Assembly: GCA_000091205.1 (NCBI GenBank)
Contig: AP006488.2
DNA from: Cyanidioschyzon merolae
Lineage: Eukaryota
Length of the DNA: 64,000 nucleotides
Strand: one strand, 5' to 3'
Below the pieces are notes generated by a model, which was given only the letters and a program-made list of their open reading frames with translations, searched no databases and was not told the DNA's origin. The first letter of the stretch is position 1, and the number at the start of each line of letters is the position of its first letter. The position numbers and the translations under genes are program-made. Of this stretch, positions 9,197-34,745 are shown piece after piece.

Positions 9197-9579
9197 TTTC
9201 TTGGATTAGATTTCCTCTGGTGCAAAGCTGCTGAACGCGCCACCAACTAGAGACGTTCGCTCAAGCATGCGTATCCAGTCAAAAACCTCTTTTGCGTAGC
9301 TGCAAGAGTGATCGCCCGTCAATGGTCCAGAGTCTGACCCATATCTCCCGTAGACTGCATAGCGTTGAGCACATCTAGCACAAGTGCTCAATGTCTTTCT
9401 GAGAAACTAGGCAAAACTCCTATGCTTCCCATCAACAACCTCATCAGCAGTTAGTGCCAAGGGTTCCGCAGTGCTGCGCTCAGATATCTAAACGACCGTT
9501 CACGAACGTCGACGTGGCTCTCCGACGAATACCGTAGAGGAGGTATAAGGGAATATCCTCCGGTGGTATGTTATTTTGG

Positions 9580-9685
9580 AAGCGTCTGCACGTCAGTTGG
9601 AGACGTCATGTTTAGGGCGGGTCACTCGCCACTACCGTGCACCGCGGGCAGCAGCGTTTTTCTTTTCAAAAGCATTTTTTGTCGG
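9580..9685 (+). mobile_element. Solo 3'-terminal fragment of the Fanzor/TnpB-like element family (conserved right-end module only)
   Basis: 'cgtctgcacgtcagttggagacgtcatgtttagggcgggtcactcgccactaccgtgcaccgcggg...gcgtttttcttttcaaaagc' matches the conserved 3' ends of the copies at 13140, 22060, 28270 and 32620. No upstream ORF is present. Confidence 0.5.
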
Positions 9686-14246: not shown

Positions 14247-14477
14247 GATCGGGTGGAGCATATCTCGAGTCGATGCGCCCAGTGGTATCGCAAAGCCATT
14301 CTCTCAATCGGTACTGCGTCGGCACAGGCGGTACAGGCGACATTCTTGGCGCTCACGCAAGGCACCGCGCATGATGGTGTGTGGGGACCGACTAGAATCA
14401 CCGAGCTGAAGAATGGGTAACAGAATTCGAAGGCTGTTGGAGCGATGGACGGTTTCCCGATCGCTGACCTCAAGCGC
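14247..14477 (+). repeat. Dispersed direct repeat, copy a (231 bp); it forms the 3' end of a 119-aa ORF (14061..14420)
   Basis: Near-identical to 18724..18954 ('gggtggagcatatctcgagtcga...ccgagctgaagaatgggtaacagaattcgaaggctgttggagcgatggacggtttcccgatcgctgacctcaagcgc'). The shared peptide is 'RVEHISSR.AQWYRKAIL.IG.AS.QAVQATFLALT.GTAHD.VWG.TRITELKNG*'. Confidence 0.7.
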
Positions 14478-14884
14478 TCCAGTTTTGATTCCATGTCAAC
14501 GTATTCGGTCTGTCGACCAAGAAAACTAGGCGACGCTGTCCAGTTACATACATATAAATTCATTAATATCCATATAAATTCCATATCTCTGTTTGCAATC
14601 AGGGACGTCGAGACTTTCCGCTGCCATGTTCGGGAGAAATGTCCGCTTTCAGCAGCCGAGATAACGAGATCGCTAGATGATTTTTGCAACGTGGCCCTGT
14701 TCCCAACCGCAGGTTTTTTGAAGTCGGATCACTACTGGAGCGCCGCAGCCGCCGGCGTTGCAGAACACTGACGCGCGCTTCGTTGAATGCTCGTTGACCA
14801 CGTCCACTGATACACGAACCTGAATACAAGCTTCGATACGATACATACTGAGCGGCTTACGAGTCATAACTTCATACCTCCAAA

Positions 14885-15560
14885 ACATGTCTACAACCCC
14901 TACTCGTGACGATAAGGATATTGTGGGAAAACGCTACGGTCTAGCTTGCCTGTCCTATCGTAAGCTACCACCTGTCGAAGGCGAGTACCCTGAAGGTGCT
15001 GCGCGGCTGGTGCTCTGTTGCATCAAGATCACCACCAAGGGAGACTCGCGTGCGTTTACCAAGTACCCATACACGGTGGATAATGGGTGGGTATGTTGTT
15101 GTGATTGGTGCGCTGCTTAAGAAATTTAGGCGGGGAGAGCACTTATACAACTATAGAAAAATCAAGTGCGTTCGGGGCTCTAGTGCGTTTCCACTTCAGA
15201 GCTTCTTTCTTCGAACACCGGCGCTACTGCTGCCGACGAGCCGGACGTTTTCCTCTGGAACGCGAAGCTTGAGCGGACTCCTCGAGGACTGCAGTGTCGT
15301 GGACTGGAAGTGATGATGTGCTCGTGTAGGAGTGGTATCCAACGCAGCGAAGTTCTTCGTTCAGCCGCGTCGCTCTAGCCTCATGCTATGCGGTGCGATT
15401 GTGACACTGCTTGACTGTGCCCTGCCCCAAGCGCTGAAGATTGCGTTCCCGCTCTGCACAGTTGGGGGCAGGACACCTGCACGAACTTGTTCCGCCCTCA
15501 CCGAAGGTCGTTTGCGTACTGGAAATGGAAAGTGAAGGATAGCTAGTGTCTGTATGCGGC
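14885..15560 (+). repeat. Inverted repeat pair, copy 1 (about 670 bp), carrying a conserved 77-aa Cys-rich small ORF (14887..15120)
   Basis: ORFs 14887..15120, 14996..15313 and 15332..15535 each have near-identical counterparts on the opposite strand at 22619..22852, 22426..22659 and 22204..22407. Confidence 0.7.
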
Positions 15561-16552
15561 AGACTACGTGTGACAGTTAAGCTGCATTCAGGAGGCCAGG
15601 GAGAGCCGCAAACATAAAAAAGACACAATGAGAAACAGACTGAAACGATTTGTCCTAAAACAACTGTCCTAAACCTTCCACACAGATCCCACATAAGAAT
15701 TCCGTTTTTCGGGATACACATTAAATGTGCCAAACAAAGCGGAAGGTTTCGGGTAACGTGAGAAGGAGCCCCACGACCGGGTCTTTGACAAATACGAACG
15801 TAGGGGTGGAACCAGTAGCACCATATGATGGTGAGATATTTGAGCAGACACCTGTCTGTCTTGAATCAACTCTGCAGGCACTGGCGCGAACCCTGGATCT
15901 AACCTCGAACTCGAGCTCAGGTTTACCTCCTACTTTAGTTTTTTCTTCAACTTTGGGGAAGTCTCGGCGGAGGTTTTGGAAGACGGCAGGCAGGTTGTTC
16001 GCGGTCGAAGGTGGAATAAGCGACTTACCCGCCTACATGTTTGGGGAGCGGATCCGAAGCCGTTGAAAGGGTCGTTAGTAGACTATATCCCGAGTGGTCG
16101 AGGGTTGCATCACGCGCCACGCAGCGTAACGGCCGCTTTCGAATCGACCCCGCCAGCTCGACTCCTAACACTGCGCTACCACTGCGGCAAGCACTCAATG
16201 AACGACTGGAGTGTAGAAGGCACTGGTGGCATGTGCGCTCACACACTCCGTGGCGGGTGCGTCTAAATCGACGGCACAACTCTGGAGCACCGCAACGCTA
16301 TTCCTAATCAATGACGAGCTACCACTCGATAGGTTTCGCATCGTGGAACATTTGCGGGACAGCCGCGAGACTGGACGATGCAAGGCACTTCCGGGAGCGC
16401 TGAGACGCCCATAGCCTGGCGTTGCGGGAGACACTACGCTCAGAGAACACAAATGCCTATAATAGTCTGCACATCCCAGGCTACAACAACGTTTGAACCT
16501 ACATACGCAGGCCCTACGGACAAGTTAACTTATTTATTTATGCACAGGTGGA

Positions 16553-18473
16553 GTGGCGCTCACTGTGGATCGACGCCTCACTTGCGAAGCGCTCGGTAAC
16601 CCGTCACCATGGATGCTCTTAGTGCGTGTTACAATCGCAGGTGAAATCATAACTTCGCTTGTAGGCTCTATTCATATTCCACATGCTGCAGAGATGCGCC
16701 GGCAGGCGCTGAAACAGTTGGCCTCCAATATCCAGCGCTTGAGATGTAGCTCACGGGGTAGTGAACCGATGACCATTATGGGGGACTGTGACATGTCGGC
16801 GAACCAACTTGGGCAACACCTACAACGACTGGGATGCGCATTCCTATCGGTGTATCCGTGCAGACGGTCACTCTTGACGTGGCACCGCCTAAGCGGCCAA
16901 CGTTTGCTTCGCTCATCTATAGATCACATCCTAAGTGAGGGATGCGACCCAGCACTCCAGCATATCGCCGTTGACAGTCTTTGGGACGCCTCAGACCAGT
17001 AGCCTATTCACTGCACATGGCACTCGCGCCCGAGGGACAAAAGCTTTGAGACAGCAATGGTGGTAGCACAGACTGCACAACAGAGGTCACCAGCGGGTGC
17101 ATCCTTGATGGATAAGGCCTGAAACTAACCAAAAAGTCACGAGCCGCTTCCCGAAAGGAGAAATCCAGTAACCAGCACAATAACGAAAAAGTGATACCAA
17201 TAGCGGACTGTACATCAGCGAAAGAGATGCAGCGGGATATGAAGGAGGAGACACAGAAGCCTCATTCCCCGCGTAGCAGAAGATCAACCGGAGAAAGCGA
17301 CCCAGAACAGGGCTCAAAGAGGAAGACATGCAAGAACAAACGGACCAACAAAAGAAACGACTGACAAAAGGGCTTACAGCTCTGGCCCCCCCGCAAACGC
17401 ATCTCAACTCATCCCCCGAATGAGAACCCTAACGAGAACTCAGGAAAACAGCCAACATGCTCGGCCACCCGCTTGTGGCGCCACAGACGCGAATACCCGT
17501 GCGCGCAAACCCTTAGACTATTTGAGATGCGAGTTCGTCCATAGGAATCAGATGATTGCCAGAGAACTGGGACTGCTTGCACCAGAACGCAATAATAGCA
17601 ACCCGCAGTTCCCGAACCGACGTACCAGAGCACGGATACTTGAAGGCCACTAACTCGACAAGGTCGTCATTCGCACCGCCATACAAGCCAACGACGACGA
17701 CAACAGAGCAGCCGCAGCCCTATCGGTGCTAAAGGCGCAGCGTGCGGAAGCTCCCAAAAGAACGACGAACCTATGCAGAGAACACATACGAGCCGATAAA
17801 AACCCAGAAACGCTCCTCTAGCCAAGGCTACGTACGAGTGCGCCACCGAAGATGAACTTTGGCGCTAGATCCGAACGAGACTTGGCCCACCCAAACAATG
17901 TTTGGAGATCGCACCAATCTACCACAAGGGAGAGATGAGGACAGGGAGTGCTCCAGTGAACGATGCCTGGACAGATCGCTTCACAGACCTGTACGAAGAC
18001 GTAACGGGACAAGTTCGAGACCCAACCTTGTGGCGCCGAAACGCTGCCAAACTACTCCATCTGGACCCGTGACTCAACGTGCGCGTCCTGATTACCTGGC
18101 CTCAGCTCTGTGAGGCTCTGCAAAGAAGGCATATCCACCAAGTGCGCTGCATTGGAGCATTCCTCCCGCGGACCGGGTCAAAGTGGCGCTCCCGCAATAT
18201 GAGACACCAGGGACACCATCGATACCTTATGAATGTGAGACAATCTTAGCCAAACGCCTTCTGGAGATCATCCATCGCATGTTTGAAGAAGCGTACATCC
18301 CAGGTGTATGGGAGACTGCTGAGGTCGTACCCTTCCTCGAAAAGGATCCAGCAACAGATACGAACATCTACCGGGCTACGCGCATCATCCCGTCGACCAT
18401 TAAGCTCATGTGCGTCATACGCACGTACCGGATCCACGCGGGCCTCGAGGAGAGATGTTTCTTCGTCCCATAA
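16553..18473 (+). mobile_element. Degenerate non-LTR retrotransposon (LINE) remnant: AP-endonuclease C-terminal fragment and reverse-transcriptase fragment
   Basis: 16553..17002 contains 'IMGDCDMSANQ...LLTWHRLSGQRLLRSSIDHILSEG' (EEP/APE 'GDFN' and 'RIDhIL.S' motifs). 18183..18473 contains 'YIPGVWETAEVVPFLEKDPATDTNIYRATRIIPSTIKLM', which resembles the LINE RT domains 0/1 ('IP..W....LIPKkgdp.d..NyRPIsLl...K'). The intervening sequence is not open. Confidence 0.35.
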
Positions 18474-18723
18474 CAGGAAGGATTTCGGAGCCGTGAATCG
18501 GATGCGCACATGGGACCAGAGTTATGTTGACCTACCCACTGGAGGGTACCGGGCAGAGGCCAGCGCCTCGAATCGAAAACATACTCTACACAAGTTTGCG
18601 AAAGTCAGACTCGGGCTTTAGGATGTATCCCAGCAGCCACTGCTCTCCAAATCCTCGTATCGCGAACGCAAGCCAAAATATGCACACTGGCCGAGCGCCA
18701 ACCGCTTGCCAAACACGACCTTG

Positions 18724-18954
18724 CATCGGGTGGAGCATATCTCGAGTCGACGCGCCCAGTGGTATCGCAAAGCCATTCTCACAATCGGTAGTGCGTCGGT
18801 ACAGGCGGTACAGGCAACATTCTTGGCGCTCACGCCAGGCACCGCGCATGATGTTGTGTGGGGAACGACTAGAATCACCGAGCTGAAGAATGGGTAACAG
18901 AATTCGAAGGCTGTTGGAGCGATGGACGGTTTCCCGATCGCTGACCTCAAGCGC
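18724..18954 (+). repeat. Dispersed direct repeat, copy b (231 bp; 3' fragment of the 14061..14420 ORF)
   Basis: See 14247..14477. ORF 18706..18897 ends with the same 'ITELKNG*'. Confidence 0.7.
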
Positions 18955-19517: not shown

Positions 19518-20978
19518 TCAGGCACCGCATGTGTTCGTGATCTCCACGCGACCGTGAAAGCTTGAGCAGACTACGCGCGATTGATGCAAACTTGTCGCCG
19601 CAATTTCTGGCAACGCTTCAGGGTCCCCACGTGCGCCCGTCGCTGCAGTTATGGTCGCCAGCTCGGCGCCTGACTGCACAGTGCCCGGTAGATTTCTCTT
19701 CTGGCAAATTTGCTCACGCCATAACACCAGCATTCGTCGGATATCTTCCAGATCGCTCATGGTGGCGGAGGCGCGCTCGCCGCGAATGAAAGCACGAACA
19801 AGCTCGAGATGCTTGCGTTCGGAGGCCGCCTCCAGCTCGCCTCCTTCCGGTGTATCTTGAGGACATCGCTCAGGCATGCCTTCCATGATCCAGCGACGCA
19901 GCAGCATCAATTCATATCGATCCAGCCACTCTGCTAGTGATTTCTGCGATACGGATGTATCCGAAGCGGTTCCCCGGTCCGGCGACTGCGATACTATAAC
20001 CGGGATATGGCGCAGCTTCTCAAATTCGGACCATCGCTCATCGTAGACCGCGTTTGAGACAATGCTCTTGTCTTCCTTCAGGCTGGATATCATTTGCTCG
20101 TGATATTCCAGTCCGAGAAATTCATATTGCCAGACGAATTTAGCTCCATTACGCCCATTCCTGTCACAGATTTTCTTCGAATCTTGTGGAGCGATACAGA
20201 GAACCTCCGCAAGGCCAGCGATGCCTATTCGCGACCCCCGCTTGATCGGCGCGCGCCCACAAGCCTCGGCTGTTGTGCGGCCCGTGCATGCGAAGAATAA
20301 CTGCACCAGATACAGTGCAGCTATAAAACCTCCAACGAATAGGCAGTAGACACCAACAAGAAGCGCCAAAATAGCCGGAAAAGGGCGATGCACCAACGCT
20401 GCCCTGAAACCGCTGGTGCCGCTGCCGAGCTGTTCACTTTCGAAGCCAATCTCAAGGAAACAAACAACAACGCCATACACGAGCAGTAGCAGGATTGAGA
20501 TGAGATACCCCAGAAAGTAGGGGTGGTTGCGCGCCCCCACGCACTGGCCAAGCCAGACGCAGTGGTGGTCCAGGCGAACACAGCAGCGCTCGCATACATA
20601 GCAATGCTTGGTTCGTGGTGGCCGGAACACCCGGCAGTTTTCACAGTACTTCAGGGAGAACTCCTCTCCTGTCTTCCTGTCACGAACTCGAATGTTCATT
20701 GGAAGACCCGTGGAGGCCTCCCGGTACAGCAGCTCTTTTTCGTGTTCAGCGCTGTAAGGGACCCAGCCCGGGTCAGTAAAGGCGGCCACGAGGAAGCATG
20801 TCCACGCGCAAACAGCCAAAAAGATCCCTACGGCAAGCACAGACCAGCCGCGCGGCGCCTTGTCCGCACAAAAATATGGTGCTACACCAGCAAAGAAGAC
20901 GATCTGCGGTACCGCAGTGGCAAAAGCAGCGACTACAAACAGCCGTCGCTTCGAAGGCACGAGACTTGACAGAGGCAT
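19518..20978 (-). CDS. DHHC-type zinc-finger protein S-acyl (palmitoyl) transferase
   Basis: The 486-aa intact ORF contains 'CENCRVFRPPRTKHCYVCERCCVRLDHHCVWLGQCVGARNHPYF' (DHHC-CRD). Hydrophobic TM segments flank the domain on both sides. Confidence 0.75.
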   Translation of the reverse strand: MPLSSLVPSKRRLFVVAAFATAVPQIVFFAGVAPYFCADKAPRGWSVLAVGIFLAVCAWTCFLVAAFTDPGWVPYSAEHEKELLYREASTGLPMNIRVRDRKTGEEFSLKYCENCRVFRPPRTKHCYVCERCCVRLDHHCVWLGQCVGARNHPYFLGYLISILLLLVYGVVVCFLEIGFESEQLGSGTSGFRAALVHRPFPAILALLVGVYCLFVGGFIAALYLVQLFFACTGRTTAEACGRAPIKRGSRIGIAGLAEVLCIAPQDSKKICDRNGRNGAKFVWQYEFLGLEYHEQMISSLKEDKSIVSNAVYDERWSEFEKLRHIPVIVSQSPDRGTASDTSVSQKSLAEWLDRYELMLLRRWIMEGMPERCPQDTPEGGELEAASERKHLELVRAFIRGERASATMSDLEDIRRMLVLWREQICQKRNLPGTVQSGAELATITAATGARGDPEALPEIAATSLHQSRVVCSSFHGRVEITNTCGA

Positions 20979-21172: not shown

Positions 21173-22165
21173 TTGTCGTTGGCGCGGACCCGGAAACTCA
21201 AATATCGTTACCGTCGCAGTACCCAAGCGTGTGGCAGATGGTACTAACGGCACCTTACATCAGACAGACATGTGTCTTTTGAGGTTCTCGAGAGCAAGAT
21301 ACGATCGAGAATCCGGTATGATCAATGCAAGGAAGAAAATTGAGACATGGAATGCAGGAATGAAGGATCACCTGCAAGCTTTGAGCGAGGTGAGGAGCCG
21401 AGGAGCGGACTTTACAGATTTTCGGGAATTCATGGAAGTTCGCGTTGCTCATTGGGACGCGCTGTGGGAGGATTATACAAAGCCCAGGTGGGCTCGTTTG
21501 CGAATGAATCTGTACTGTGGGAAGCAGCGGGCGTTCGCCAACTTTTTCAATCAGGTGGGCGCCCTCAAGGAGATTGAAAGTCAGAGGCTCGTCGTAGCGT
21601 ACGGAGCAACGCGCTGGAAGACCCAAAAACGGGACTATGCCAGCTCCAACGACAAGAACGTACAAGGAGTGTGCACGGCGTTTCGCTGCGATACCTGCAG
21701 ATGAGTTTCGAACATCGTATACACACCACGAGCTGGGATTTACACTTCAGAGAGTCGAGATGGAAACGTGCCAACGAAGCCATGAGGAAATAGCAAACTA
21801 CGGACCGCTGATGGGAGAGCAAATGGATAAGAGAGCGAAAGTTCGTGGACTACTTGCGCTGGTGAGCGCAACCAAAGATGACAAGAAACGTATGGTATTA
21901 GTGAACCGAGACTTTAACGCCGCTACGAATGTAAAGAGATGTACGGTGACAGATAGAAGACCTCCAGAGTCGACAAGAGAGAACTTTGTTAGACAATCAC
22001 TCAAAGTGGAACTATATGAGAAACAGTTGGAAGCAGTTGTAGGTGACCGGTCCAAAAGGCTGGGAGGCGTCTGCACGTCAGCTGGGGATTTCTTGTCTAG
22101 GGCGGGCTTCTCGCCACTACTGTACACCGCTGGCGACAACGTTTTGCTTTTGAAAGGCGTTTTGT
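21173..22165 (+). mobile_element. Fanzor/TnpB-like element copy 2 (family A; 5'-truncated, begins at the RuvC-I 'VVGADP' segment; frameshifted)
   Basis: Homology begins at 'gttgtcgttggcgcggaccc'. ORFs 21141..21704 and 21637..22353 lie in different frames, with the same +1 insertion as copies 3 and 4. The 'VNRDFNAATNVKR' RuvC-III-like motif and the conserved 3' end are present. Confidence 0.7.
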
Positions 22166-22194
22166 TTCAGGGGTTTTTGCAGTATACAGACACT

Positions 22195-22860
22195 ATCTAT
22201 CCTTTACTTTCCATTTCCAGTACGCAAACGACCTTCGGTGAGGGCGAAACAAGTTCGTGCAGGTGTCCTGCCCCCAACTGTGCAGAGCGGGAACGCAATC
22301 TTCAGCGCTTGGCGCGGGGCACAGTCAAGCAGTGTCACAATCGCACCGCATAGCATGAGGCTAGAGCGACGCCGCTGAACGAAGAACTTCGCTGCGTTGG
22401 ATACCACTCCTATACGAGCACATCATCACTTCCAGTCCACGACACTGCAGTCCTCGAGGAGTCCGCTCAAGCTTCGCGTTCCAGAGGAAACCGTCCGGCT
22501 CGTCGGCAGCAGTAGCGCCGGTGTTCGAAGAAAGAAGCTCTGAAGTGGAAACGCACTAGAGCCCCGAACGCACTTGATTTTTCTATAGTTGTATAAGTGC
22601 TCTCCCCGCCCAAATTTCTTAAGCAGCGCAGCACTCACAACAACATATGCAGCCATCATCTAACGTGTACGGATACTTGATAAAGGCGCGTGGGTCACCT
22701 TTGGTCGTGATCTTGACACAACAGAGCGCCACTCGCCCAGCACCCTCAGGAAACTCACCCTCAACGGGTGGGAGTTCACGATAAGATAGGCAAGTTAGAC
22801 CAGTACGTTTTCCCACAATATCCTTATCGGTTGGCGTTTGCTTTTCGGGCATCTTTTAAA
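22195..22860 (-). repeat. Inverted repeat pair, copy 2 (reverse complement of 14885..15560), abutting the 3' end of element copy 2
   Basis: See 14885..15560. The 77-aa ORF 22619..22852 (-) reads 'MPEKQTPTDKDIVGKRTGLTCLSYRELPPVEGEFPEGAGRVALCCVKITTKGDPRAFIKYPYTLDDGCICCCECCAA', against 'MSTTPTRDDKDIVGKRYGLACLSYRKLPPVEGEYPEGAARLVLCCIKITTKGDSRAFTKYPYTVDNGWVCCCDWCAA' in copy 1. Confidence 0.7.
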
Positions 22861-25800
22861 AGTAGCAGATAATGATTCTGAGGCAAAGGTCGTGAAGTAG
22901 CGAGCGAAGCTTGTATTCAGGTTCTTGTATCAGTGAACCTCAACAACGAGTATTCAACGGGGCGCGCGTCAGCACTCAGCACCGTCGGCGACTGCCGCGT
23001 TCCACTGATGATGCGTCTTCAAAACACCGGCGAGAGCGTGTAGGCTGCCACGTTGCACACGCCGTAGCGCGCCTCTCGCCATGTCGTCATCTCGCCTGTT
23101 GCTGTAGGCGGACCCTGCGTCCCTAGCACGAAAGCGGAACGTCCCACCGTGATAGCCCACAAAGATCTAGTACTTTTTGGTATATTAATATATTAAATTG
23201 TACGTTATGAGTTCGCGCCTGTGGCGATCCCCGCAGCCTGTTCGCGAGGACTCTCAGTTGTAGGTACCCATGGCATCCTATCCTTATGTCAGATTAAAGT
23301 GGAGAACTCAGCTGCTCGCGCAGTTCCTGCCTTGAGATTTTTCCGCAATGGTTTTAGATCTCCAGTCTGTAGAAGCAAAGTGCAACAGTGCGGGCTCATG
23401 GAATGGGAAGCAGCTGCAGGAATCACGGACGCGCAACCGGAGTGGCTTTGTAGACCCTCTGCCGCTGGCATTCGTCACGTCACCGTCATTTGAATGATGC
23501 GCGGCACCCGCGAGCAAGGATTCATCACATAAAAGGCATCTTCTTCCACGACATGCGTACAAGCCTCTGCGCTTCTCATATTCCTTAGTGTGGCGTGCAC
23601 GAATCACTCGCATGCGCCAAGGTTCGATGCCTCTGTTTCAAGGCGACACTCGGGTGCAGCACTTCATGTCGTTGGATGGACGACGAAAAAAACCTGGGTT
23701 GAGGCCGTGACGACTCGTTCACAGACTCTCGCTGAAACGTCACGCAGCTTATCACTGCAAACAAGCAGTTTCGCTCGGGAAGCAATGCCACCTCTATGTG
23801 GGGCTATCGACGGAGCGGCACTCATTGGCAGTATGGTGCAGTTCCCGGAACATGCGCTCAGAGGCGCCCGTCTCTTTTCTGCGCATGGAAAGGGGTCCTC
23901 GACCCGGGCTTTACTCATCGCTGCGATGACTTTGAGTAGAGCGTGCGTCACTGCTTTGCGCGAAGTGAGCGAAGACAGATCGAGAGTTCACGACGTGCAC
24001 GCCGGACTGGGAGGTTCGTTGCGATACCTGTTCCTGTCTGGAGAGCATCGCCTTCGACGAGTCGTCTAGAGAAGGGAGCAGCATGCGCAGGCGTGTGTTG
24101 AGGGGAGCGCTCTCGCCGAGGCGATCGCCCAGCAGAAGCCCGTGAGCGTAGGTTACGGCAGCTGGTGCGAGAACGGAGCAGGGCACTGAGGTGAGGCTTC
24201 TGGACCCGCCACACACAGTTACGGAGCGTCGACGCGAGCGTTCACGTGTCAGCGACTAGCCGTCAGATGACGAAGTATGCTGGTGGCACGTGACCGCCAG
24301 ACCACAGCCAAGCGGCAACGCTGCGACGGGCGCACCGCAACAGAGTGGAAAGAAGGTGCACATGGCAAGCGAAGCGAAGATGGCAACTTTTGGCAGTGCA
24401 TGGAATGCCTAGACAAGAGTCGGCAGCTATGGAATCGGGGCCTGAACACCACCACCGCCAATATCGTGCGACTGCTATGAACAGCGCTGGAGAGAAAGGA
24501 GAGACCAGCGTCGTTTAAAGAAGCCGAAATATTAGTGCATACGTCTTTGTCCGTGGATCTGTTCAGTTCTATGTAACTCGAACGCACCTGTCAGTGGAAC
24601 AAAAACGTCCCACGACCATGTCGTATACATGAATATCTACCCGCAGACGCCTCCCTGCCATGCTGGACCGCGCCCTGCTGTCGGCTCCAGCTTCTTGTTG
24701 TATACGGAGACCCTGAGAGACTGCCCCGCAAGTCAGATCGCGTCAGTTCCTCGGGTAAAGTCTTTCGCTCTGCACATTATCTGATAATGATGGCGACGTT
24801 GAGGTCTCGGTCAACGAACTCGTTGCATTTATTGCCGATGGTGGAACCTCGCTTTGCGAAGACGCATCGAACTCGTGCTCTCTGTGCCACCAGAGTTTCG
24901 TAAACGTACCGTCGAGCAAACACCTTTTCCTGGCTATCTCTCATCGTCATCGTCTTCGTTGTCCTCATCTGTTGCTCCTCTTCGATTGGTGGTCAGCGGG
25001 AAGAGGATTTTTTCATTTTGTTTGTCGAACTCGGCAATGATGGTCCTCCGGTATCCTCGACTTTCACGTCCATACCATTGCATTCTATTTTTTTGAGAAC
25101 GAACGCACTTGGAACGCATCTGCTGTTAACCGCGAAAAACCACTTGAATACTATACGAGGCTATTGGAACACGAATGCATTGAAAGACTAGACCTTGCTG
25201 CCACTTCAACCCTAACACGTCTTGTCCGTTAGAGCGACACGTTCATGATCAGGATCGCGTTTCCCTTCAACGGCGAGATGTGCGTCGTGTCTTGTTCTTT
25301 TTCTGGTCTGAGAAAACCTATCCATCGACCGTGGATCACGGATTGCGGGATGGATATCGGCTTTCGGGAAAGCGCCCGTCATGGTGCACCCTGCCTCCAG
25401 GTTCCATTACTTAGACTCCCTTTCCGCTAGACTGGTCGATTTGTGCGTTCGTTCGTGCGCCGAGCCTGCAGTGAGCACCCGCCGCAGCGCTTGTACCGCT
25501 GGAGCGGATGCTGCACAGGGACAGAACAGCGTAGGCGTACCACCGAATGCGCTGCGACCAGGGCGACGCCCAGACGCTGCCTGAGCACCCTTAATGCCGG
25601 AATAAACCGCTTCGGGGATGAGTTGGTCAGATATCACTAAAGCACCTGCCATTGGGTGGGGGAAGCATGACGCAATTACCCAGAAGACTCGTCCGGCTCA
25701 CGGGGCCTTCCGCCTGGAGCGCAAACATTCTAACATGCGGAAAGCTTCTCCCCCTGTCAACGTTTAGCGTAGAGGGGGAATGAAATCGTTACATCGTTTG

Positions 25801-25929: not shown

Positions 25930-28350
25930 ACGTGTTGTTCTACCGGAAAAAGTTGTATTCGCGTTGGAGTCGAAGCAAAGTACAATTTTTCAGTTCATTT
26001 GTGTTTCAGCCCTCAAACATGTCTAGTCGAGTGTTTTCTTGCAATATATAATAGAAGGATTCGAAGCTGGTTCTTTTTCAAAAAAAATAAAAAAAGGAAA
26101 GTCATAGGAAAGCAAGTCGGCGATCCTGGAGGCCCAGGATCGCCGGCTGCCAGAAAAACAAATACAGTGCCGAGTCCGGACGAACAGCAAAAGAAAAAGA
26201 AGCAAAATGTGAGGCCCTACGTCGAAGGCTGCAAGAACGACAACTGTACAACGAGATAGTGGTGAAAACCTCTCTTCTTGGACATATCAAGGATCCCTAT
26301 AGGGAAAAGTTGCGAGGCGCTATCGAAAACCGTGTCGACTCGTAACCCAAGAGTTTTGTCAAGGCGTCTTCCGGACTGATGCATTTGGCGAGGGAGATGT
26401 ACAAATACGTGACGCACATGGAAACGGTCGACATTCCGGACGAGTTCTTCGACAAGACGTCTTTTCGATACCTGATGCATGGTACAGCGGAAACGTGGAG
26501 GGAAAATGTGCTAGTGCATGCTCTTTACGAAAAATTCGTGGAATTCCGATTCGAGGGTGCTTGGTACAGGGGTGACTCGCATATTTACACATACGGGGCA
26601 ATGAAGTTCATCACGAACCTGAAGAACCATTTGACAGAGAACCTCGAATGTTTCATGATACGCACCGCGTTTGCACTCAACCCGGGCATCTCTCGCAAGG
26701 GGATATGGTCGATTATCAATGGCATCACGAAAGATCGCCAGCATGAAGATGACGTCGAATTTGTCGACAAGAAGACGTCAAAAGGGAGCACGAATGAGGC
26801 TTCTGTAACCCGTGCGGCTATACAAGAGCACCGTGCAGTCTTGAGGCTGGTGAATCCAACAGACAAGATATCAAAGTTGGAAAAAGATAAGGAAAGATAC
26901 TATCGCCTCTTCCTGCGGTATTTTGTGTTTCTGGACCGAGAGCTCGAACGCAAAGCGGAGATGAAGCTGAGTGAGGAAAAATGAAGAATGGGAAAGACGG
27001 AAGGCTTTCCTAATGGGGAAGCGCTTGGACGTGGTTCCGTTGTGCAACATCAAGTCACATTTTGTGACTATCGACTCCAGATCCCTCACGACATCACGAA
27101 GGAGATCAGTGCGGAGTTCAATATTAGTCGCGAGGACTTCACCGGCGAAAACCAGGAGACGTACTGGAAGAAAATCTTCGGTTTCAAACGTCTCAAAACG
27201 AGCAAGCAAAAGGTATTCGCTGGGATGATTGAAACCAATGGAGTAGCCGTGTGTGTACACTATCGGCGGTTGAAGAAAGATCGTCGAGTCCCACCCCCCG
27301 CTGCGCCCTCGACGAAGCATGAAGATGAGAATGAGTCGGATCCCGCCACGCAGGAGGTGGAGGATACTGATCTTGTCGTTGGCGCGGACCCCGGACACAT
27401 CATTATCATCAACATCGCAGCACGGAAGCGTGTGGCAGATGGTACTAACGGCACCTTACATCAGACAGACATATGTCTTTTGAGGTTCTCGAGAGCAAGA
27501 TACGATCGAGAATCCGGTATGATCAATGCAAGGAAGAAAATTGAGACATGGAATGCAGGAATGAAGGATCACCTGCAAGCTTTGAGCGAGGTGAGGAGCC
27601 GAAGAGCGGACTTTACAGCTTTTCGGAATTTCATGGAAGTTCGCGTTGCTCATTGGGACGCGCTGTGGGAGGATTATACAAAGCCCAGGTGGGCTCGTTT
27701 GCGAATGAATCTATACTGTGGGAAGCAGCGGGCGTTCGCCAACTTTTTCAATCAGGTGGGCGCCCTCAAGGAGATTGAAAGTCAGAGGCTCGTCATAGCG
27801 TACGGAGCAACGCGCTGGAAGACCCAAAAACGGGACTATGCCAGCTCCAACGACAAGAACGTACAAGGAGTGTGCACGGCGTTTCGCTGCGATACCTGCA
27901 GATGAGTTTCGAACATCGTATACACACCACGAGCTGGGATTTACACTTCAGAGAGTCGAGATGGAAACGTGCCAACGAAGCCATGAGGAAATAGCAAACT
28001 ACGGACCGCTGATGGGAGAGCAAATGGATAAGAGAGCGAAAGTTCGTGGACTACTTGCGCTGGTGAGCGCAACCAGTGATGGCAAGAAACGTATGGTATT
28101 AGTGAACCGAGACTTTAACGCCGCTACCAATGTAAAGAGATGGACGGTGACAGAAAGAAGACCTCCAGAGTCGACAAGAGAGAACTTTGTTAGACAATCA
28201 CTCAAAGTGGAACTATATGAGAAACAGTTGGAAGCAGTTGTAGGTGACCGGTCCGAAAAGGCTGGGAGGCGTCTGCACGTCAGGTGGAGACGTCGTGTCT
28301 AGGGCGTGTTTGCCACTACTGTACACCGCTGGCCGCAGCATTTTTCTTTT
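25930..28350 (+). mobile_element. Fanzor/TnpB-like element copy 3 (full-length mosaic: family-B-like 5' half plus family-A 3' half; multiple frameshifts)
   Basis: The 5' end is 'cgtgttgttctaccggaaaaagttg', followed by a TATA 'tatataatag' and then the MHLAREMY... N-terminal half, about 90% identical to copy 1. The RuvC half is near-identical to copies 2 and 4 ('[32 protein letters not shown]...'). ORFs 26379..26984, 26988..27905 and 27838..28302 lie in three frames. Confidence 0.7.
26045..26054 (+). promoter_or_regulatory. TATA-box-like sequence (TATATAATAG) upstream of the element-internal ATG
   Basis: Read directly in the sequence. The equivalent position in copy 1 reads 'cataatag', about 50 bp before 'atgaaaaag'. 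Confidence 0.3.
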
Positions 28351-29242
28351 GAATGGCGTTTATTTTTTAGGCGACGACCACAAGCCTGTTCCCTAGTCAT
28401 CGGTCGTACGCGCGACTCCTCGGAAGTTTGGCTATAATCAGCGCGCCCCTCTAGCAAAACAGTCGAGTCGGCACCAGATGCGCCCGAGAGGCCCCGCGCC
28501 GACCTTCAACCTATTCTCGCTAACCAAAAGTTGAATACCTGCTCTGCAGCTGTTCGATCAGCTACCTCGACAGAGTAGAGGTCGATAAGCGCTCTTTCAC
28601 GATGAACTACCAGGTCATGCGCAAGTCACGCACCCTACGCTTTCGTGCTATCCGCAAAACCTGCTATCTTCCAAGCGTAGCGGCTTGCGGACCATCAAGG
28701 CAACTATGCGCTGAAATTCCGCCTCTTGTACCGTTGAACAACTTCCCTGAATGCTTCGCGCCATCGAGAAGCATATTCATGTATCGTGCGCCTGCAAGAA
28801 GCGGTTCCAACACTTCATACCGACTCAGTGGGTCCTCGACCGCAATCAAGTTCAGATTTCCGGACACAGCGTCCGCCTACGCATGAAAAACGGCCTCCAA
28901 GTCTGTTGTCGCGTGCTGTTTTTGAGGCAATGAGGAACCGCGGATGCATTGCTCGTCCACTGAGCAGTCGCGTGCGCCAGTATCGAGGACGCGTGCCGTT
29001 CTCGCAGCAAAAGAACCAGTCTGTCGGAGCGTCTCCTACTATTCCACGATACTCCAGCGGAAAAAGAGCGACTCTTCGCCCCTGTCGACGAATTGGCGCC
29101 CCGGGCGACGCTTTACGCACTTCGAGCGCTCCATGAGAGCAACCGTGAATCCCAACTGTCCCAGTTTACGATCATCGCTGGCACGGTTCAAACCGCAGTG
29201 CCCCGCCAGTTAGCAAGTTATGTCGTGAGATATTCGGAGGAA

Positions 29243-31642
29243 CTAGCGCCCCGTGCTGTGCTGCTCCAGCAGTGCTCTGCGTGCATTCTCGAGGAGTATC
29301 TTCTGCTCAACGCTTGCGATCTGTTTCCGCGTACTGATCACAGCATCAGGGTTGACACTCACGCTGTCAATGCCACAGCGAACTAAAAACTCGGTTAAAT
29401 CCGGATATACTGAAGGAGCCTGCCCGCAGATACTCACAGTGATATTGGCACGGTGGGCTTCCTCGATGAGGATGCGCATCGCGGCCTTGACTGCCGGATC
29501 GCGCTCATCAAAGTATCCCAAAGTGGCAAGCTTCGGGGAATCTCGATCCGCGCCCAGCAACAGCTGCGTTAGGTCGTTGCTACCGATACTAAATCCATCA
29601 CAGAGCTGAGCAAAATCGCGCGCGAGCAGAACAACGCTGGGAACCTCCGCCATGAGCAGAACTTTGAAGTCGGAAGCGCGCTGCAGTCCTTCAGAGCGCA
29701 TCAAGTCAAGCGCACGCTGCACCTCCCAGGTCGTTCGTGCAAATGGTAACATGGCCCAGACATTTTTCAAACCCTGCTCATCCCGAACCTGCTTCATCGC
29801 TCGGCATTCGAGGCGAAACCCGGCCTCGTACTCAGCGCTGACATAGCGCGAGACGCCCCGCCAGCCGAGCATCGGATTAGATTCAAGGATCTCGTACCGT
29901 TCGCCGCCTTTCAGGGAGCGGTATTCGTTGGTCTTGAAATCACTAAATCGGACAATGACTGGCCTCGGATAGGCAGCTTGTGCGACCATGGAAATACCTT
30001 CCGCGAGCTTCTCCACGAGCATTTCTTCCTCCTTGTTCTCGATAATGTACATGGGATGGTGTCCAACCCAGCTGGCAAGGATGAACTCGACCCGCATGAG
30101 CCCAATGCCGTCAAATGGCAGGTGACGTAGATCCTGCATTTTCTCTGGTTCACCGAGGTTCATGTAGACGCGAGTAGCCGTGATCGGCAATACCATCGAC
30201 GCGACTGCGTCAGCGGATATCCCTGCCTTGGGCGGTGTGTCCTCCTCGGCTTTGTGTACTCCGCGCAGTATGACACCCAGCGTTCCGTCCACCGTCACGA
30301 TCTGGCCGCTTCGAAGAATCTCGGTTGCTTTGCCGGTGCCAACCACACATGGTAAGCCAAGTTCACGCGAGACAATCGCGGCATGCGCAGTCATTCCGCC
30401 ACTGTCGGTGACGATGGCCGCCGCCTTTCTCATCGCTGGCACCCAGTCCGGCGTTGTCATTGATGTGACAAGCACTTCACCTGGTTGGAACTCCGATATG
30501 TTCTGGACATCAAGAAGGACTCGCACTTTCCCGTGTGCGCGCCCTGGCGATGCTCCGAGGCCACGTACCAAAACCTCGCGACGCGAGGCTGCTTTCCTGT
30601 CTGACCAGACTGTTTCGGGACGCGCTTGAAGCACATAGAGCTGGTTCTTTTCCTCATCTATGGCCCATTCAATGTCCATTGGTATTCCGTAATGCTTTTC
30701 TATGGTGAGTGCAGTTCGTAGGAGCTCCTGTATCTGTGCATCGGTGAGACACGGAGCCTCCACCAGGTCCGCTGGTACGGGTACCTCACGGGTCAGCGTG
30801 TCAGCGGATGCTGCGTCGATGCCCTGGACGCCGTCAGCGACTGCGGCTCGCACCATCATCAGCGGCTTTGAGGCAGTGTGGCGCTCGAGCACACGCCCGC
30901 TTGCCTTTTCGACCACGAAACGATCCGGTCGAACCCTGCCCTGAACGACCATCTCGCCGAGTCCCCAGCAGCACTCAATAACGATCAGATCACGCTTGCC
31001 GGTAACCGGATCCAGGGTGAAACAAACCCCCGAGACACGGCTCTGAACCATTTGCATCACACCCACACTCAGGCGCATATCCAGGTGCGGGTAGCCTTTC
31101 TCCTCCCGATATGCAATGGCGCGAGGCGAGAACAACGAGCCGTAGCATTTCTTGATATACTGGAGGATCGCATCGATGCCGTGCACGCACAGATACGTCT
31201 CTTGCTGGCCAGCAAAACTTGCCTCTGCAGAGTCCTCCGCAGTTGCGCTGCTGCGAACTGCAACCAGTGGCTCTTGCGCCCCAAGGGTTTTCACCAAGTT
31301 GCGGTACGCACTTCGAATCATCTGCTCTACGGGCGGTGGGTATGCAGCATCCTCCAACAACGCCATTATTGCCTTTGAGGCTTCCTCCAGCGAGCTGGGC
31401 GACTCTAAGTTCAGACCTTGAAGAATGGACTGAATTTTCGTGTCCAGCTTATTGAATTCGATAAAGGACTCGTACGCGGCGACCGTCACAGCGAAGCCTC
31501 GCGGGACCAAGAGCCCGAGACTCAGCAGCTCACCCAGGCTGGCGTTCTTCCCCCCAACTAAGCCTCTGTCTGTATTCCTCAAATTCTGTAGCTCCACAAC
31601 GTACTTCCCAGCGTCGTTTTCCTCGCAGTTTGTGAGCACCAT
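29243..31642 (-). CDS. ppsA: Phosphoenolpyruvate synthase (pyruvate, water dikinase), bacterial PpsA-type
   Basis: The ORF is intact over about 799 aa from M at 31642. The 852-aa track ORF starts further upstream, inside element copy 4. Blocks align to PpsA: 'DRGLVGGKNASLGELL', 'VAVRSSATAEDSAEASFAGQQETYL', 'GLGEMVVQGRVRPDRFVVEK' and 'KHYGIPMDIEWAIDEEKNQLYVLQARPETVWS'. The phospho-His motif is 'GGMTAHAAIVSRELGLPCVVG'. The C-terminal PEP-utilising domain includes 'IGSNDLTQ'. Confidence 0.85.
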   Translation of the reverse strand: MVLTNCEENDAGKYVVELQNLRNTDRGLVGGKNASLGELLSLGLLVPRGFAVTVAAYESFIEFNKLDTKIQSILQGLNLESPSSLEEASKAIMALLEDAAYPPPVEQMIRSAYRNLVKTLGAQEPLVAVRSSATAEDSAEASFAGQQETYLCVHGIDAILQYIKKCYGSLFSPRAIAYREEKGYPHLDMRLSVGVMQMVQSRVSGVCFTLDPVTGKRDLIVIECCWGLGEMVVQGRVRPDRFVVEKASGRVLERHTASKPLMMVRAAVADGVQGIDAASADTLTREVPVPADLVEAPCLTDAQIQELLRTALTIEKHYGIPMDIEWAIDEEKNQLYVLQARPETVWSDRKAASRREVLVRGLGASPGRAHGKVRVLLDVQNISEFQPGEVLVTSMTTPDWVPAMRKAAAIVTDSGGMTAHAAIVSRELGLPCVVGTGKATEILRSGQIVTVDGTLGVILRGVHKAEEDTPPKAGISADAVASMVLPITATRVYMNLGEPEKMQDLRHLPFDGIGLMRVEFILASWVGHHPMYIIENKEEEMLVEKLAEGISMVAQAAYPRPVIVRFSDFKTNEYRSLKGGERYEILESNPMLGWRGVSRYVSAEYEAGFRLECRAMKQVRDEQGLKNVWAMLPFARTTWEVQRALDLMRSEGLQRASDFKVLLMAEVPSVVLLARDFAQLCDGFSIGSNDLTQLLLGADRDSPKLATLGYFDERDPAVKAAMRILIEEAHRANITVSICGQAPSVYPDLTEFLVRCGIDSVSVNPDAVISTRKQIASVEQKILLENARRALLEQHSTGR

Positions 31643-31726
31643 TAGGTTGGCCGAATTCCAGGTCGTTTGACAGACTCCAGAAACAGAAAGAATTGAGATT
31701 GTAATCTCCGGACGTGAACGTGCTGC

Positions 31727-32707
31727 TGGCGGCCGACCCCAGAAACACAATTTCATAACCATCGCAGCACGGAAGCGTGTGGCAGATGGTACTAACGGCA
31801 CCTTACATCAGACAGACATGTGTCTTTTGAGGTTCTCGAGAGCAAGATACGATCGAGAATCCGGTATGATCAATGCAAGGAAGAAAATTGAGACATGGAA
31901 TGCAGGAATGAAGGATCACCTGCAAGCTTTGAGCGAGGTGAGGAGCCGAGGAGCGGACTTTACAGCTTTTCGGGAATTCATGGAAGTTCGCGTTGCTCAT
32001 TGGGACGCGCTGTGGGAGGATTATACAAAGCCCAGGTGGGCTCGTTTGCGAATGAATCTGTACTGTGGGAAGCAGCGGGCGTTCGCCAACTTTTTCAATC
32101 AGGTGGGCGCCCTCAAGGAGATTGAAAGTCAGAGGCTCGTCGTAGCGTACGGAGCAACGCGCTGGAAGACCCAAAAACGGGACTATGCCAGCTCCAACGA
32201 CAAGAACGTACAAGGAGTGTGCACGGCGTTTCGCTGCGATACCTGCAGATGAGTTTCGAACATCGTATACACACCACGAGCTGGGATTTACACTTCAGAG
32301 AGTCGAGATGGAAACGTGCCAACGAAGCCATGAGGAAATAGCAAACTACGGACCGCTGATGGGAGAGCAAATGGATAAGAGAGCGAAAGTTCGTGGACTA
32401 CTTGCGCTGGTGAGCGCAACCAGTGATGGCAAGAAACGTATGGTATTAGGGAACCGAGACTTTAACGCCGCTACCAATGTAAAGAGATGTACGGTGACAG
32501 AAAGAAGACCTCCAGAGTCGACAAGAGAGAACTTTGTTAGACAATCACTCAAAGTGGAACTATATGAGAAACAGTTGGAAGCAGTTGTAGGTGACCGGTC
32601 CGAAAAGGCTGGGAGGCGTCTGCACGTCAGGTGGAGACGTCGTGTCTAGGGCGTGTTTGCCACTACTGTACACCGCTGGCCGCAGCATTTTTCTTTTGAG
32701 TGGCGCT
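31727..32707 (+). mobile_element. Fanzor/TnpB-like element copy 4 (family A; 5'-truncated at the same point as copy 2; same frameshift)
   Basis: Homology starts at 'gctggcggccgacccc...catcgcagcacggaagcgtgtggcagatgg'. ORFs 31779..32252 and 32185..32649 are more than 98% identical to the copy 2 and copy 3 peptides. The conserved 3' end is '...gtctagggcgtgtttgccactactgtacaccgctggccgcagcatttttcttttgag'. Confidence 0.7.
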
Positions 32708-32954: not shown

Positions 32955-34745
32955 ATGGCTGCGAACACGGAAGGTGACGAAGTTTCGCTGCCAGTGGCGA
33001 AAACGCTTCGCAGTATACTGGAGCTGACGGACCCCAGAGAGGCTGCAGATGCCTTCGCCGCTTTCATCGGCCTGCACACCCAGCGTATGGAAGACACATA
33101 TGGGCCACAGAACAATTGGGGAAAGCTCAAGGATGAACTGTATAAATGGCAACTTAGCCTCGCGGAGGTATTGGTAGCCACCCTCCAGCAGCGAATCTTT
33201 GAAACGTATCCACCGCATGGCTCGGGGGCAACCCACGGCCTTCGGATACCTCGTCGAAATGCATGGCTGCTTTTGTCGCAACTCGTATACTACGTCTCAA
33301 AGCGAGGTCTGTTGAGACCCCATGCTCGTAGCGTTCTCAGCGCTGTTCGCTACGAGCTCTGGAAGGAAATGGGATGGGTCTACTTTGCGGAACTGGCGTA
33401 CTTTCTTGTTCGTTGGCGGCAGCAGTTCGTTGGGCTGCTCACCACCAGAATGAGTTCGACTGCTTCTGGTTGTGATCGCCGCACCAGCTACCCCACCGCT
33501 CGTGATTACGAGGCCTCTCATGTGATCGTAGCGGTACTGCCGCAGGTGCTGCGCTACGTTCCCGCACAGACGTGGTCCGCTCTCGGCGCAAGAGCGCCGT
33601 ACACTGGGACACAGTCGGGACAAATTGATCTTCAACAGAATGCAGTTCCGGCAACGCGAGAGGCGCTGCTCAGTTGTTTCGTTGCGCATACGGCTTGGCG
33701 ACATCCGGAACGCCTCGTAGAAGCCACGCTTGTTCCGAATCAATGGAGAGATATGGTAACGCATGCTTGGCTCGATGAAATTCTCCTTCGGGAGCAAGCT
33801 ATTTTGCGGCCGTGGATGATGCCTGCAATCACGGCCATGGAAGACGATAAGACTGCCCTTGAGGACGCTGTTCTACGCGAAACGAATCGAGAGCAGTTTG
33901 AGGTGGACGCTTTGCGGGCGCTGGCCAGCTTACGTATCTGCCGTGAGTTGTTTGTGCCAGGACCTTTGCATTGCCCTCCGCTAGATATGACGTTGGCGCC
34001 CAGGGTCACCTCGGAGACAGGATCTGGCCTCCGAGAGCTGCGTGTATGGAAAGCGATCTTCCTCGAGAGGGCCTCATCGCTCGATGAGGAACGGGTTCCA
34101 CGCTGTCTTCGAGTCGACGGAGGAGCCGCAGCTCGCCTCGTTGATGTCATTCATGGAGCATCTCTTTCGCCCCTGGAGGCAGACACCATCCTGGACCGCC
34201 TCATCGACGCTGATGAAACCCTGATTCACCGGCTTCACTTGAGTCCGGAGGATCTTCTGCGCTTCCACGAGAATCACAGCGTTCGGCATACAGCCCGGAT
34301 CTTGCAACACCTGGTTGATACGTGCACCAACCGCTTGCCAGAATATATGGACGCATTCACGTTGCTTCCGGTAACGATTTCGAATCTGTCTCTTGTTCAC
34401 GCAGTAGATCGGGAACTCTTCTTTCGGCTGTACACAAGCCGAGTTTGTGCTCAAGGACGCACACTGGTCTCGTGGAATGACACGGCTTCGGAGCGCGTCG
34501 CTGAGCTCTTCGCGACCTTTGTTCTACGCATGCTCGATGAACGTCCCACCTGGATAACGAATGAGATCTCCGTAGAACTTGAAGCCTGGGCACTTTGTGC
34601 ATCCAGGGTGATGCGCCCTGTGGAACTTTATCGTTGCCTTCGGCGACGACGTTTAAGTCCCAGTGCACGCCCACAAACAAGCACGGCGGTAGCAGCGTCT
34701 GGCGAGTACATCTCGTTCCAGTTGCTATCGTCGGATGCACAGTAG
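32955..34745 (+). CDS. Hypothetical protein (596 aa), no recognisable domain
   Basis: A long intact ORF (ATG start) with balanced, non-repetitive composition. No motif was recognised by eye. Confidence 0.5.
   Translation: MAANTEGDEVSLPVAKTLRSILELTDPREAADAFAAFIGLHTQRMEDTYGPQNNWGKLKDELYKWQLSLAEVLVATLQQRIFETYPPHGSGATHGLRIPRRNAWLLLSQLVYYVSKRGLLRPHARSVLSAVRYELWKEMGWVYFAELAYFLVRWRQQFVGLLTTRMSSTASGCDRRTSYPTARDYEASHVIVAVLPQVLRYVPAQTWSALGARAPYTGTQSGQIDLQQNAVPATREALLSCFVAHTAWRHPERLVEATLVPNQWRDMVTHAWLDEILLREQAILRPWMMPAITAMEDDKTALEDAVLRETNREQFEVDALRALASLRICRELFVPGPLHCPPLDMTLAPRVTSETGSGLRELRVWKAIFLERASSLDEERVPRCLRVDGGAAARLVDVIHGASLSPLEADTILDRLIDADETLIHRLHLSPEDLLRFHENHSVRHTARILQHLVDTCTNRLPEYMDAFTLLPVTISNLSLVHAVDRELFFRLYTSRVCAQGRTLVSWNDTASERVAELFATFVLRMLDERPTWITNEISVELEAWALCASRVMRPVELYRCLRRRRLSPSARPQTSTAVAASGEYISFQLLSSDAQ

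Follow-up and report, generated by a model that had tools for sequence, protein, structure and literature searches.

A phosphoenolpyruvate synthase gene of archaeal affinity beside decayed Fanzor1 copies in Cyanidioschyzon merolae

How does a prokaryotic type of metabolic gene come to lie between two copies of a mobile-element family on the nuclear chromosome of an alga? The question is raised by CMF012C, the phosphoenolpyruvate (PEP) synthase gene of Cyanidioschyzon merolae (PEPS), which is flanked by pieces of a Fanzor1 element, CMe-1A, in a stretch of 64,000 nucleotides from chromosome 6 of strain 10D (the window, to which all positions refer unless another sequence is named). An earlier interpretation from the letters alone (the sequence-only reading) suggested that PEPS is a bacterial-type gene which was acquired horizontally or mobilised by the two elements, in an arrangement like that of a composite transposon, and that a promoter may have been captured from the adjacent element. 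The horizontal origin and the Fanzor assignment stand; the donor domain, the age of the transfer and the mobilisation by the elements do not. With a probability of about 85%, we read the locus as an old, expressed PEPS gene of archaeal derivation, and the decayed Fanzor1 pieces as later arrivals that did not move it. The apparent transposon-captured bacterial gene would then be an old, domesticated archaeal gene beside dead Fanzor1 copies.

The gene and its immediate surroundings are as follows.

29243–31642, minus strand: coding sequence of PEP synthase (pyruvate, water dikinase), CMF012C, 799 amino acids, identified by an intact open reading frame (ORF), Pfam, NCBIfam and an exact protein match.
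28366–29242, no strand assigned: unique DNA from the 3′ end of copy 3 to the PEPS stop codon (the 3′ flank of PEPS), with no other match in the window.
31643–31715, minus strand: unique spacer of 74–85 bp between the PEPS start codon and the truncated end of copy 4.
25931–28365, plus strand: copy 3 of CMe-1A, about 2.4 kb, a near full-length pseudogene and a mosaic.
31716–32705 (start at about 31716–31727), plus strand: copy 4 of CMe-1A, the 3′-terminal 0.98 kb from the RuvC-I motif on, a pseudogene.

The ORF is intact over its 799 codons, as the sequence-only reading had it. An exact-sequence look-up identifies the product as the PEP synthase of C. merolae 10D (XP_005535692.1 / BAM79406.1), on a chromosome record of 536,163 bp in which the gene is about the twelfth from one end. 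The Pfam domains are found in the order PPDK_N (1.6e-111), mobile (swivelling phospho-histidine) domain (4.7e-29) and PEP-utilizers_C (7.1e-70), covering residues 28–779. The catalytic-histidine motif of the mobile domain, TAHAAIVSRE, is conserved, and the motif (GGMTAHAAIVSRELG) aligns with the archaeal and E. coli enzymes. Among the NCBIfam models, the PEP synthase equivalogs NF005057 and TIGR01418 give 1004 bits (cut-off 598) and 964 bits (cut-off 740), respectively, compared to only 164 bits (cut-off 843) for the PPDK model TIGR01828. By these scores CMF012C is a true PpsA and not a PPDK, again in agreement with the sequence-only reading. From its sequence, the protein is predicted to be a working PEP synthase, converting pyruvate, ATP and H2O to PEP, AMP and Pi.

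The overall layout is that of the prokaryotic PpsA enzymes (EC 2.7.9.2; NF005057/TIGR01418), especially those of Crenarchaeota and Marsarchaeota, with which CMF012C has in common the full-length three-domain arrangement, the phospho-histidine motif and a score that exceeds the cut-off by a wide margin. Unlike these enzymes, it is encoded on a eukaryotic nuclear chromosome amid DHHC and ARF genes, has the codon usage of its host, and is 63–66% identical to its nearest archaeal relatives.

The gene itself is not new: its annotation and its expression are both on record. A transcriptome table lists it as a phosphoenolpyruvate synthase, with diel variation of the mRNA (PMC6606799, text and supplement), and rhythms of PEPS were also recorded there by quantitative reverse-transcription PCR (PMC6606799). 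In comparisons with strains that are about 98% identical, 14–15 of the 2400 nucleotides of the gene are changed, and the ratio of nonsynonymous to synonymous rates (dN/dS) is 0.16–0.18, from which the gene is evidently evolving under purifying selection. The enzyme is probably cytosolic, because no N-terminal extension is conserved. An extension that reads into copy 4, giving an ORF of 852 or 849 amino acids with a possible transit peptide, was considered and rejected as non-coding; the 849-residue version is a call by metagenome gene finders. Many residues of this 50-residue upstream extension vary among strains, compared to 5 of 799 in the enzyme, and the annotated methionine lines up with the N termini of the Cyanidium and archaeal proteins. 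Both observations argue that the extension is not translated.

The origin of the gene was assessed first of all from its best 120 homologs. Cyanidium caldarium (66% identity) is the only named eukaryote in this set, and C. merolae-like algae are the source of two metagenome proteins, at 99% and 81% identity. The remaining homologs at 57–65% are all archaeal (Thermoprotei metagenome-assembled genomes (MAGs), Marsarchaeota, Nitrososphaeria and Methanomethylicaceae), the top bacterium is found at 52%, and other named eukaryotes and cyanobacteria are absent from the 120. The nearest archaeal enzymes, from Marsarchaeota and Thermoprotei MAGs, show the 63–66% identity mentioned above, compared to 51–54% for the best bacterial enzymes and 44% for E. 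coli PpsA. In a GTDB scan with one genome per prokaryotic species, 79 of the 80 best loci are archaeal. The bacterial-type label is thus appropriate for the PpsA family and inappropriate for the closest relatives of the gene.

A neighbour-joining tree of 72 sequences, with 200 bootstraps and E. coli PpsA as the root, is consistent with this picture. The algal enzymes form a clade of four sequences, including those of Cyanidium caldarium and another cyanidiophycean, in 200 of 200 bootstraps. This clade is joined to a Marsarchaeota/Thermoprotei-MAG clade, also in 200 of 200, and both are located inside the archaeal enzymes. The proposed horizontal, prokaryotic origin of PEPS in a eukaryote is therefore supported, with an archaeal rather than a bacterial donor. 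The gene is nuclear and not a contaminant, as seen from its eukaryotic flanking genes, the synteny with a related alga (contig L003, see below) and the exact match to the C. merolae 10D chromosome.

The composition of PEPS does not set it apart from its host. Its G+C content at third codon positions (GC3) is 0.63, in a host range of 0.52–0.70, and its codon usage is indistinguishable from that of 16 host ORFs of the window, with the smallest distance to the pooled host genes. This is the state of an ameliorated gene, not of a recent arrival. Since the algal clade includes Cyanidium caldarium and the codon usage is host-like, the transfer is likely to be ancient, and the sequence data support an archaeal acquisition that is common at least to the Cyanidium and Cyanidioschyzon lineages.

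These results also bear on two other origins. A young gene from a bacterium, with a composition that is still foreign, might be suggested by an intronless PpsA-type protein that aligns over its full length with E. coli PpsA. However, nearly all C. merolae genes are without introns, and their absence from PEPS is therefore uninformative. Moreover, the identity to any bacterial enzyme is at most 54%, well below that to archaea, the gene is common to Cyanidium caldarium and the L003 alga in the 200/200 clade, and its codon usage cannot be told from that of host genes. We find a recent bacterial transfer barely credible. The alternative of vertical inheritance, in which Cyanidiophyceae alone would have kept PEPS from a eukaryotic ancestor or from the plastid, agrees with the old, ameliorated and, inside the lineage, syntenic state of the gene. 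It is made very improbable by the position of the algal clade inside the archaeal radiation, beside hot-spring Marsarchaeota and Thermoprotei, and by the lack of other named eukaryotes and of cyanobacteria among the best 120 hits.

As in other prokaryote-derived genes of Cyanidiophyceae (PMC6629376, PMC9812998), CMF012C is an extremophile-derived metabolic gene whose algal sequences are monophyletic and nested in prokaryotes, and it too is located in a region rich in transposable elements near a chromosome end. No mention of PEP synthase is made in the main texts of Rossoni et al. 2019 (PMC6629376) and Cho et al. 2023 (PMC9812998), supplementary lists excepted, and no description of PEPS as a horizontal transfer in Cyanidiales was found in the main texts of the literature searched (supplements again excepted). 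The gene would be one well-supported extra case of this class, a central-carbon PEP synthase with a Marsarchaeota/Thermoprotei-like donor. Its archaeal ancestry is a modest addition that leaves the current understanding unchanged.

The second part of the question concerns the elements. Copies were located by self-comparison of the window (blastn and alignment), and their reading frames were followed by three-frame translation. There are five copies of one Fanzor1 element and a remnant of 100 bp, all on the plus strand, so that the direct orientation of the two repeats around PEPS is as described by the sequence-only reading. Apart from copies 3 and 4, they are the following.

10493–13202, plus strand: copy 1 of CMe-1A, near full-length, broken.
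21173–22171, plus strand: copy 2 of CMe-1A, the 3′ 1 kb only, 5′-truncated, its 5′ boundary identical to that of copy 4.
53891–56637, plus strand: copy 5 of CMe-1A, old and divergent, 66–72% identical to copy 3.
9578–9680, plus strand: solo remnant of the CMe-1A 3′ end, 100 bp.

Fanzor1 proteins are eukaryotic, TnpB-like RNA-guided nucleases. The element ORFs have no significant match in Pfam or NCBIfam; there is only a faint match to Cas12f1-like_TNB (E=0.2). The repaired translation of copy 1 has numerous homologs in metagenomes from hot springs; those in the green algae Tetrabaena and Haematococcus are more distant. When the family profile (A1) was compared with the PDB sequences, it matched the Fanzor1 proteins of Parasitella (9cf0, E=2.7e-16), Spizellomyces (SpuFz1, 8gkh, 1.9e-15) and Guillardia (9cer, 0.013), with no match other than these three solved structures. 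The first two of these matches bear out the earlier Fanzor/TnpB-like label. The motifs GADPG, VDEFRTS and NRDFNAA are aligned to the D, E and D motifs of the SpuFz1 RuvC domain, and in copy 3 they are spread over different frames. Between RuvC-II and RuvC-III, where a CxxC…CxxC zinc finger was looked for by inspection, the residues are SYTHHELGCTLQRV…RGLLALVSTTSDGKK, without cysteine pairs.

A Fanzor1-encoding family of C. merolae, CMe-1A, has been described by Bao and Jurka (2013, PMC3627910), with about 150 copies, a consensus of about 3 kb to which each copy is about 80% identical, no terminal inverted repeats (TIRs), undetermined target-site duplications (TSDs) and some intact Fanzor1 ORFs. 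Judged by that description, the elements of the window belong to this family, which is thus already known. Species and Fanzor1 ORF are the same. Unlike the published family, all copies in the window are defective, the canonical CxxC zinc-finger cysteines are not visible, and three copies make up a young local cluster of 95–98% identity, with two identically truncated 3′ fragments of 1 kb and one mosaic.

No copy in the window has an intact Fanzor ORF. Copy 1 has an in-frame TAG at 12453 and a change of D to E in RuvC-III (NREFNAA). Copy 3 has lost 2 nt near 26979 and 1 nt near 27079, and its frame shifts by +1 near 27832. The N-terminal 60% of the Fanzor protein is missing from copies 2 and 4. 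Relative to intact homologs, copies 2, 3 and 4 carry one common +1 frameshift; they are 95–98% identical to each other and about 82% identical to copy 1, and shared derived sites group them as ((c3,c4),c2). Over 980 nucleotides, the identity between 27380–28358 (copy 3) and 31727–32705 (copy 4) is 98.2%. The two near-identical copies of the sequence-only reading are confirmed for this segment; as wholes they differ, copy 4 being only the 3′ 0.98 kb and copy 3 a mosaic.

The mosaic has two parts. The 5′ part of copy 3 (25931–27372, about 1.45 kb) is 91% identical to copy 1, whereas its 3′ part (27373–28365, about 1 kb) is 81% identical to copy 1 and 95–98% to copies 2 and 4. This change of affinity coincides exactly with the point at which the truncated copies 2 and 4 start. 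Copies 2–4 appear to be of local origin because of their common frameshift, their 95–98% identity and the 5′ boundary common to copies 2 and 4. A local duplication with gene conversion or crossover would fit these data, and independent transposition would not.

Some further features of the copies were observed. In copy 1, a 75-bp tandem repeat of about five units (11881–12255) encodes a 25-residue acidic repeat in each unit. It is located in the Fanzor1 linker just before RuvC-I, the place where copies 2 and 4 are truncated and copy 3 switches, and the metagenome homologs P0121 and P0122 have the same 75-bp repeat in variable number. The site looks like a recombination-prone spot of the element. 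Directly upstream of copy 3, at 24643–25530, there are older, degenerate CMe-1A pieces in inverted orientation, the element 5′ end in reverse at 25090–25290 and the 3′ end in reverse at 24643–24889; copy 3 therefore seems to lie in a nest of earlier insertions. Finally, a short lysine-rich ORF (…EEQKKKKQRGRPY…) is found at 10667–10820 and 26100–26259, upstream of the Fanzor ORF and in another frame. It resembles a nuclear localisation signal, and in copies 1, 3 and 5 a stop and a change of frame lie between it and the main ORF. This break may be due either to a small intron or to an ancestral frameshift.

Whether these elements moved PEPS can be judged from the neighbouring genes, of which two are needed here.

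32955–34745, plus strand: CMF014C, hypothetical protein of 596 amino acids with a weak CNOT11 match; its ortholog adjoins PEPS in L003.
19518–20978, minus strand: DHHC gene (palmitoyltransferase), its start codon 195 bp from copy 2.

The other ORFs near PEPS are an annotated Arf/Sar1 GTPase gene and CMF016C. CMF014C is transcribed divergently from PEPS, and 250 bp separate its start codon from the 3′ end of copy 4. L003, a metagenome contig of 42 kb that derives from a more distant cyanidiophycean, contains the genes CMF016, ARF, CMF014, PEPS and DHHC in the order and orientation of the window, with protein identities of 80% for PEPS, 78% for ARF, 56% for DHHC and 49% for CMF014C. A conserved stretch of 205 bp between PEPS and the DHHC gene is also in place. 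A tblastn search over 18 kb of this contig finds no Fanzor sequence. The intergenic DNA was too diverged for an alignment aimed at the insertion points. In Cyanidium caldarium, PEPS has different neighbours and no Fanzor nearby.

The sequence-only reading had itself named, as a finding that would speak against it, the same locus occupied in a relative that lacks the flanking elements. The comparison of orthologous loci gives this very result: in L003 PEPS fills its slot, and no elements flank it. The elements therefore appear to have arrived after PEPS. The proposal that PEPS was brought to this locus, or can still be moved, by a compound mobile unit with the two Fanzor copies as its ends draws on the presence of 98%-identical direct repeats on both sides of a gene of foreign origin, an arrangement in which the locus is like the bacterial composite transposons of the Tn5/Tn10 type, with two mobile-element copies around a gene. 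Unlike those, however, it has no transposase, no intact inner ends and no TSD, and PEPS is older than the copies that flank it here. The piece on the right is 5′-truncated, and both pieces are pseudogenes. Fanzor1 is, to our knowledge, an RNA-guided nuclease and not a transposase. CMe-1A has neither TIRs nor defined TSDs (PMC3627910), and none of either kind was seen at these copies. In addition, copies 1 and 2 bracket the DHHC gene in the same orientation as copies 3 and 4 bracket PEPS, and bracketing is for this reason not special to PEPS. With the L003 slot occupied and free of Fanzor, mobilisation of PEPS by the elements is refuted as a working explanation, and we assign it a very small residual probability.

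The region was also compared with contigs from C. merolae-like algae. In all four of them (L001, L002, L142 and L186), copy 4 is upstream of PEPS and an element fragment is downstream, and the 3′ flank of PEPS (28366–29242) is colinear in L001, L002 and L142. In L001, a copy 2/copy 3 hybrid fragment is joined directly to the DHHC side, with 6.2 kb removed. In L142, the flank and 5′ half of copy 1 are joined to the 3′ half of copy 3. Switches between paralogs were noted at 3583–4580 and 10191–11726 of L001 and at 1–1610 of L142, and also between the arms of an inverted repeat described further below.

Several points weigh against the archaeal, element-independent history that we favour. The phylogeny is by neighbour-joining only, with just four bacterial sequences, and it is without Galdieria PEPS or PPDK, so that the data set only one limit to the age of the transfer. 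The element-free state of L003 may reflect loss of the elements; the presence of PEPS in the same slot would still be enough to reject mobilisation. The junctions inside repeats in L001 and L142 may be either real recombinant arrangements carried by natural populations or assembly chimeras, which bears on the 6.2-kb interval between copies 2 and 3.

Our preferred history of the locus would run as follows. An ancestor of Cyanidium and Cyanidioschyzon would have gained PEPS from an archaeon, a thermoacidophilic relative of Marsarchaeota or Thermoprotei. The gene would then have been inherited vertically, ameliorated to the composition of the host, and placed under purifying selection and day/night expression. 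Pieces of CMe-1A would have entered this region, rich in transposable elements and near the chromosome end, once PEPS was in place. We infer the order and mechanism of the local duplications from the comparison of the copies: copies 2, 3 and 4 would descend from a single, already frameshifted copy, whose spread over about 11 kb would be due to duplication, ectopic recombination or gene conversion and not to autonomous transposition, and the switch in the copy 3 mosaic at the ends of the truncated fragments may be a footprint of this exchange. For PEPS, the elements would be at most recombining direct repeats of 1 kb and a piece of DNA in the bidirectional promoter region between PEPS and CMF014C. 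The locus also serves as an example of local decay and recombination of a Fanzor1 family in a very compact eukaryotic genome.

The promoter region deserves separate consideration. The coordinates of the earlier interpretation, with copy 4 starting at about 31727 and about 85 bp from the PEPS start codon, are correct (74–85 bp, depending on the alignment). Of the 1312 bp between the divergent genes PEPS (start codon at 31642) and CMF014C, 980 are taken up by copy 4, and the spacer at 31643–31715 must hold the 5′ untranslated region (UTR) of PEPS and at least part of its promoter. In both copies 2 and 4, the truncated end faces the adjacent gene (DHHC and PEPS, respectively).

Transcription of PEPS, and perhaps also of CMF014C, might therefore start in copy 4 or use a promoter within it, given that the non-element DNA before the PEPS start codon is so short and that the copy occupies most of the space between two divergent, expressed genes. 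Copy 2 is placed likewise, upstream of the DHHC gene, and all C. merolae-like metagenome contigs that extend to this position have copy 4. On the other hand, the genome of C. merolae is compact, and in our assessment a core promoter inside the 74–85 bp spacer is plausible. The PEPS orthologs of L003 and Cyanidium have been kept without the copy 4 fragment, and the in-frame extension into the element evolves neutrally and is non-coding. The position of copy 4 is compatible with a regulatory role and equally so with an insertion into open promoter DNA, which is the simpler cause. Capture of a promoter or 5′ UTR from the element is unlikely. We are more sceptical still of a bolder proposal, that the truncated fragments are kept for a promoter or 5′-UTR function and, separately, that the direct repeats of copies 3 and 4 make PEPS a recombination cassette that can be excised or amplified in natural populations.

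The ends of the element were examined with a metagenome scan for a 17-mer from its 3′ tail, which gave 80 loci, 68 of them with the element. The copies end alike at the 3′ side, with …GCCACTACTGTACACCG-TGGCG-CGTTCGACTTTCGAACGGCGTT. The 3′ tail is strongly conserved over 36 non-redundant copies, with a terminal palindrome in the consensus; the palindrome is intact in about half of the copies and degenerate in copies 2–4. The tail was examined for a structured guide RNA (omega/fRNA); RNAalifold found no supported consensus structure there, and scans of the window with Rfam and for tRNAs gave no hits. Among the 68 metagenome copies, recurrent 5′ boundaries are located at 25931, 25552–9, 27308, 27591, 27932 and 28265. 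Several recurrent 5′ boundaries together with a common 3′ end echo the variable 5′ and constant 3′ ends reported for other Fanzor1 families (Bao and Jurka, PMC3627910). A truncated 1-kb subfamily with many copies was considered and rejected, as the 27373 boundary occurs only at the PEPS-region locus among the 68. Solo 3′-end pieces of 100 bp, corresponding to 28265–28365 in copy 3, have the same boundaries at 9578–9680 and at the unrelated loci L087, L107 and L116. Such pieces might be a miniature derivative of the element or the product of a deletion that recurs.

Elsewhere in the window, a LINE had been noted by the sequence-only reading. A stretch at 18240–18500 on the plus strand is like the reverse-transcriptase motifs of elements without long terminal repeats by eye (…YRATRIIPS…QEGFRSRES) and has no Pfam match, so the LINE is not confirmed. 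Near this stretch, there is a pair of 233-bp direct repeats (14245–14477 and 18722–18954) with 96% identity.

An inverted repeat has arms of 701 nucleotides at 14861–15561 and 22178–22878, each with an ORF of 77 amino acids (14887–15120, plus strand, and 22619–22852, minus strand). The two ORFs end in a cysteine cluster, …CCCDWCAA and …CCCECCAA. They have no Pfam match, and neither exact sequence is present in the protein collection searched. A part of the ORF region, 205 bp in length, is 74–75% conserved in L003, between PEPS and the DHHC gene. The ORF may be an unannotated small gene that is duplicated in C. merolae. Finally, a protein of 727 amino acids encoded at 3337–5520 on the minus strand combines Kelch repeats with a C-terminal Hint module of the hedgehog/intein type.

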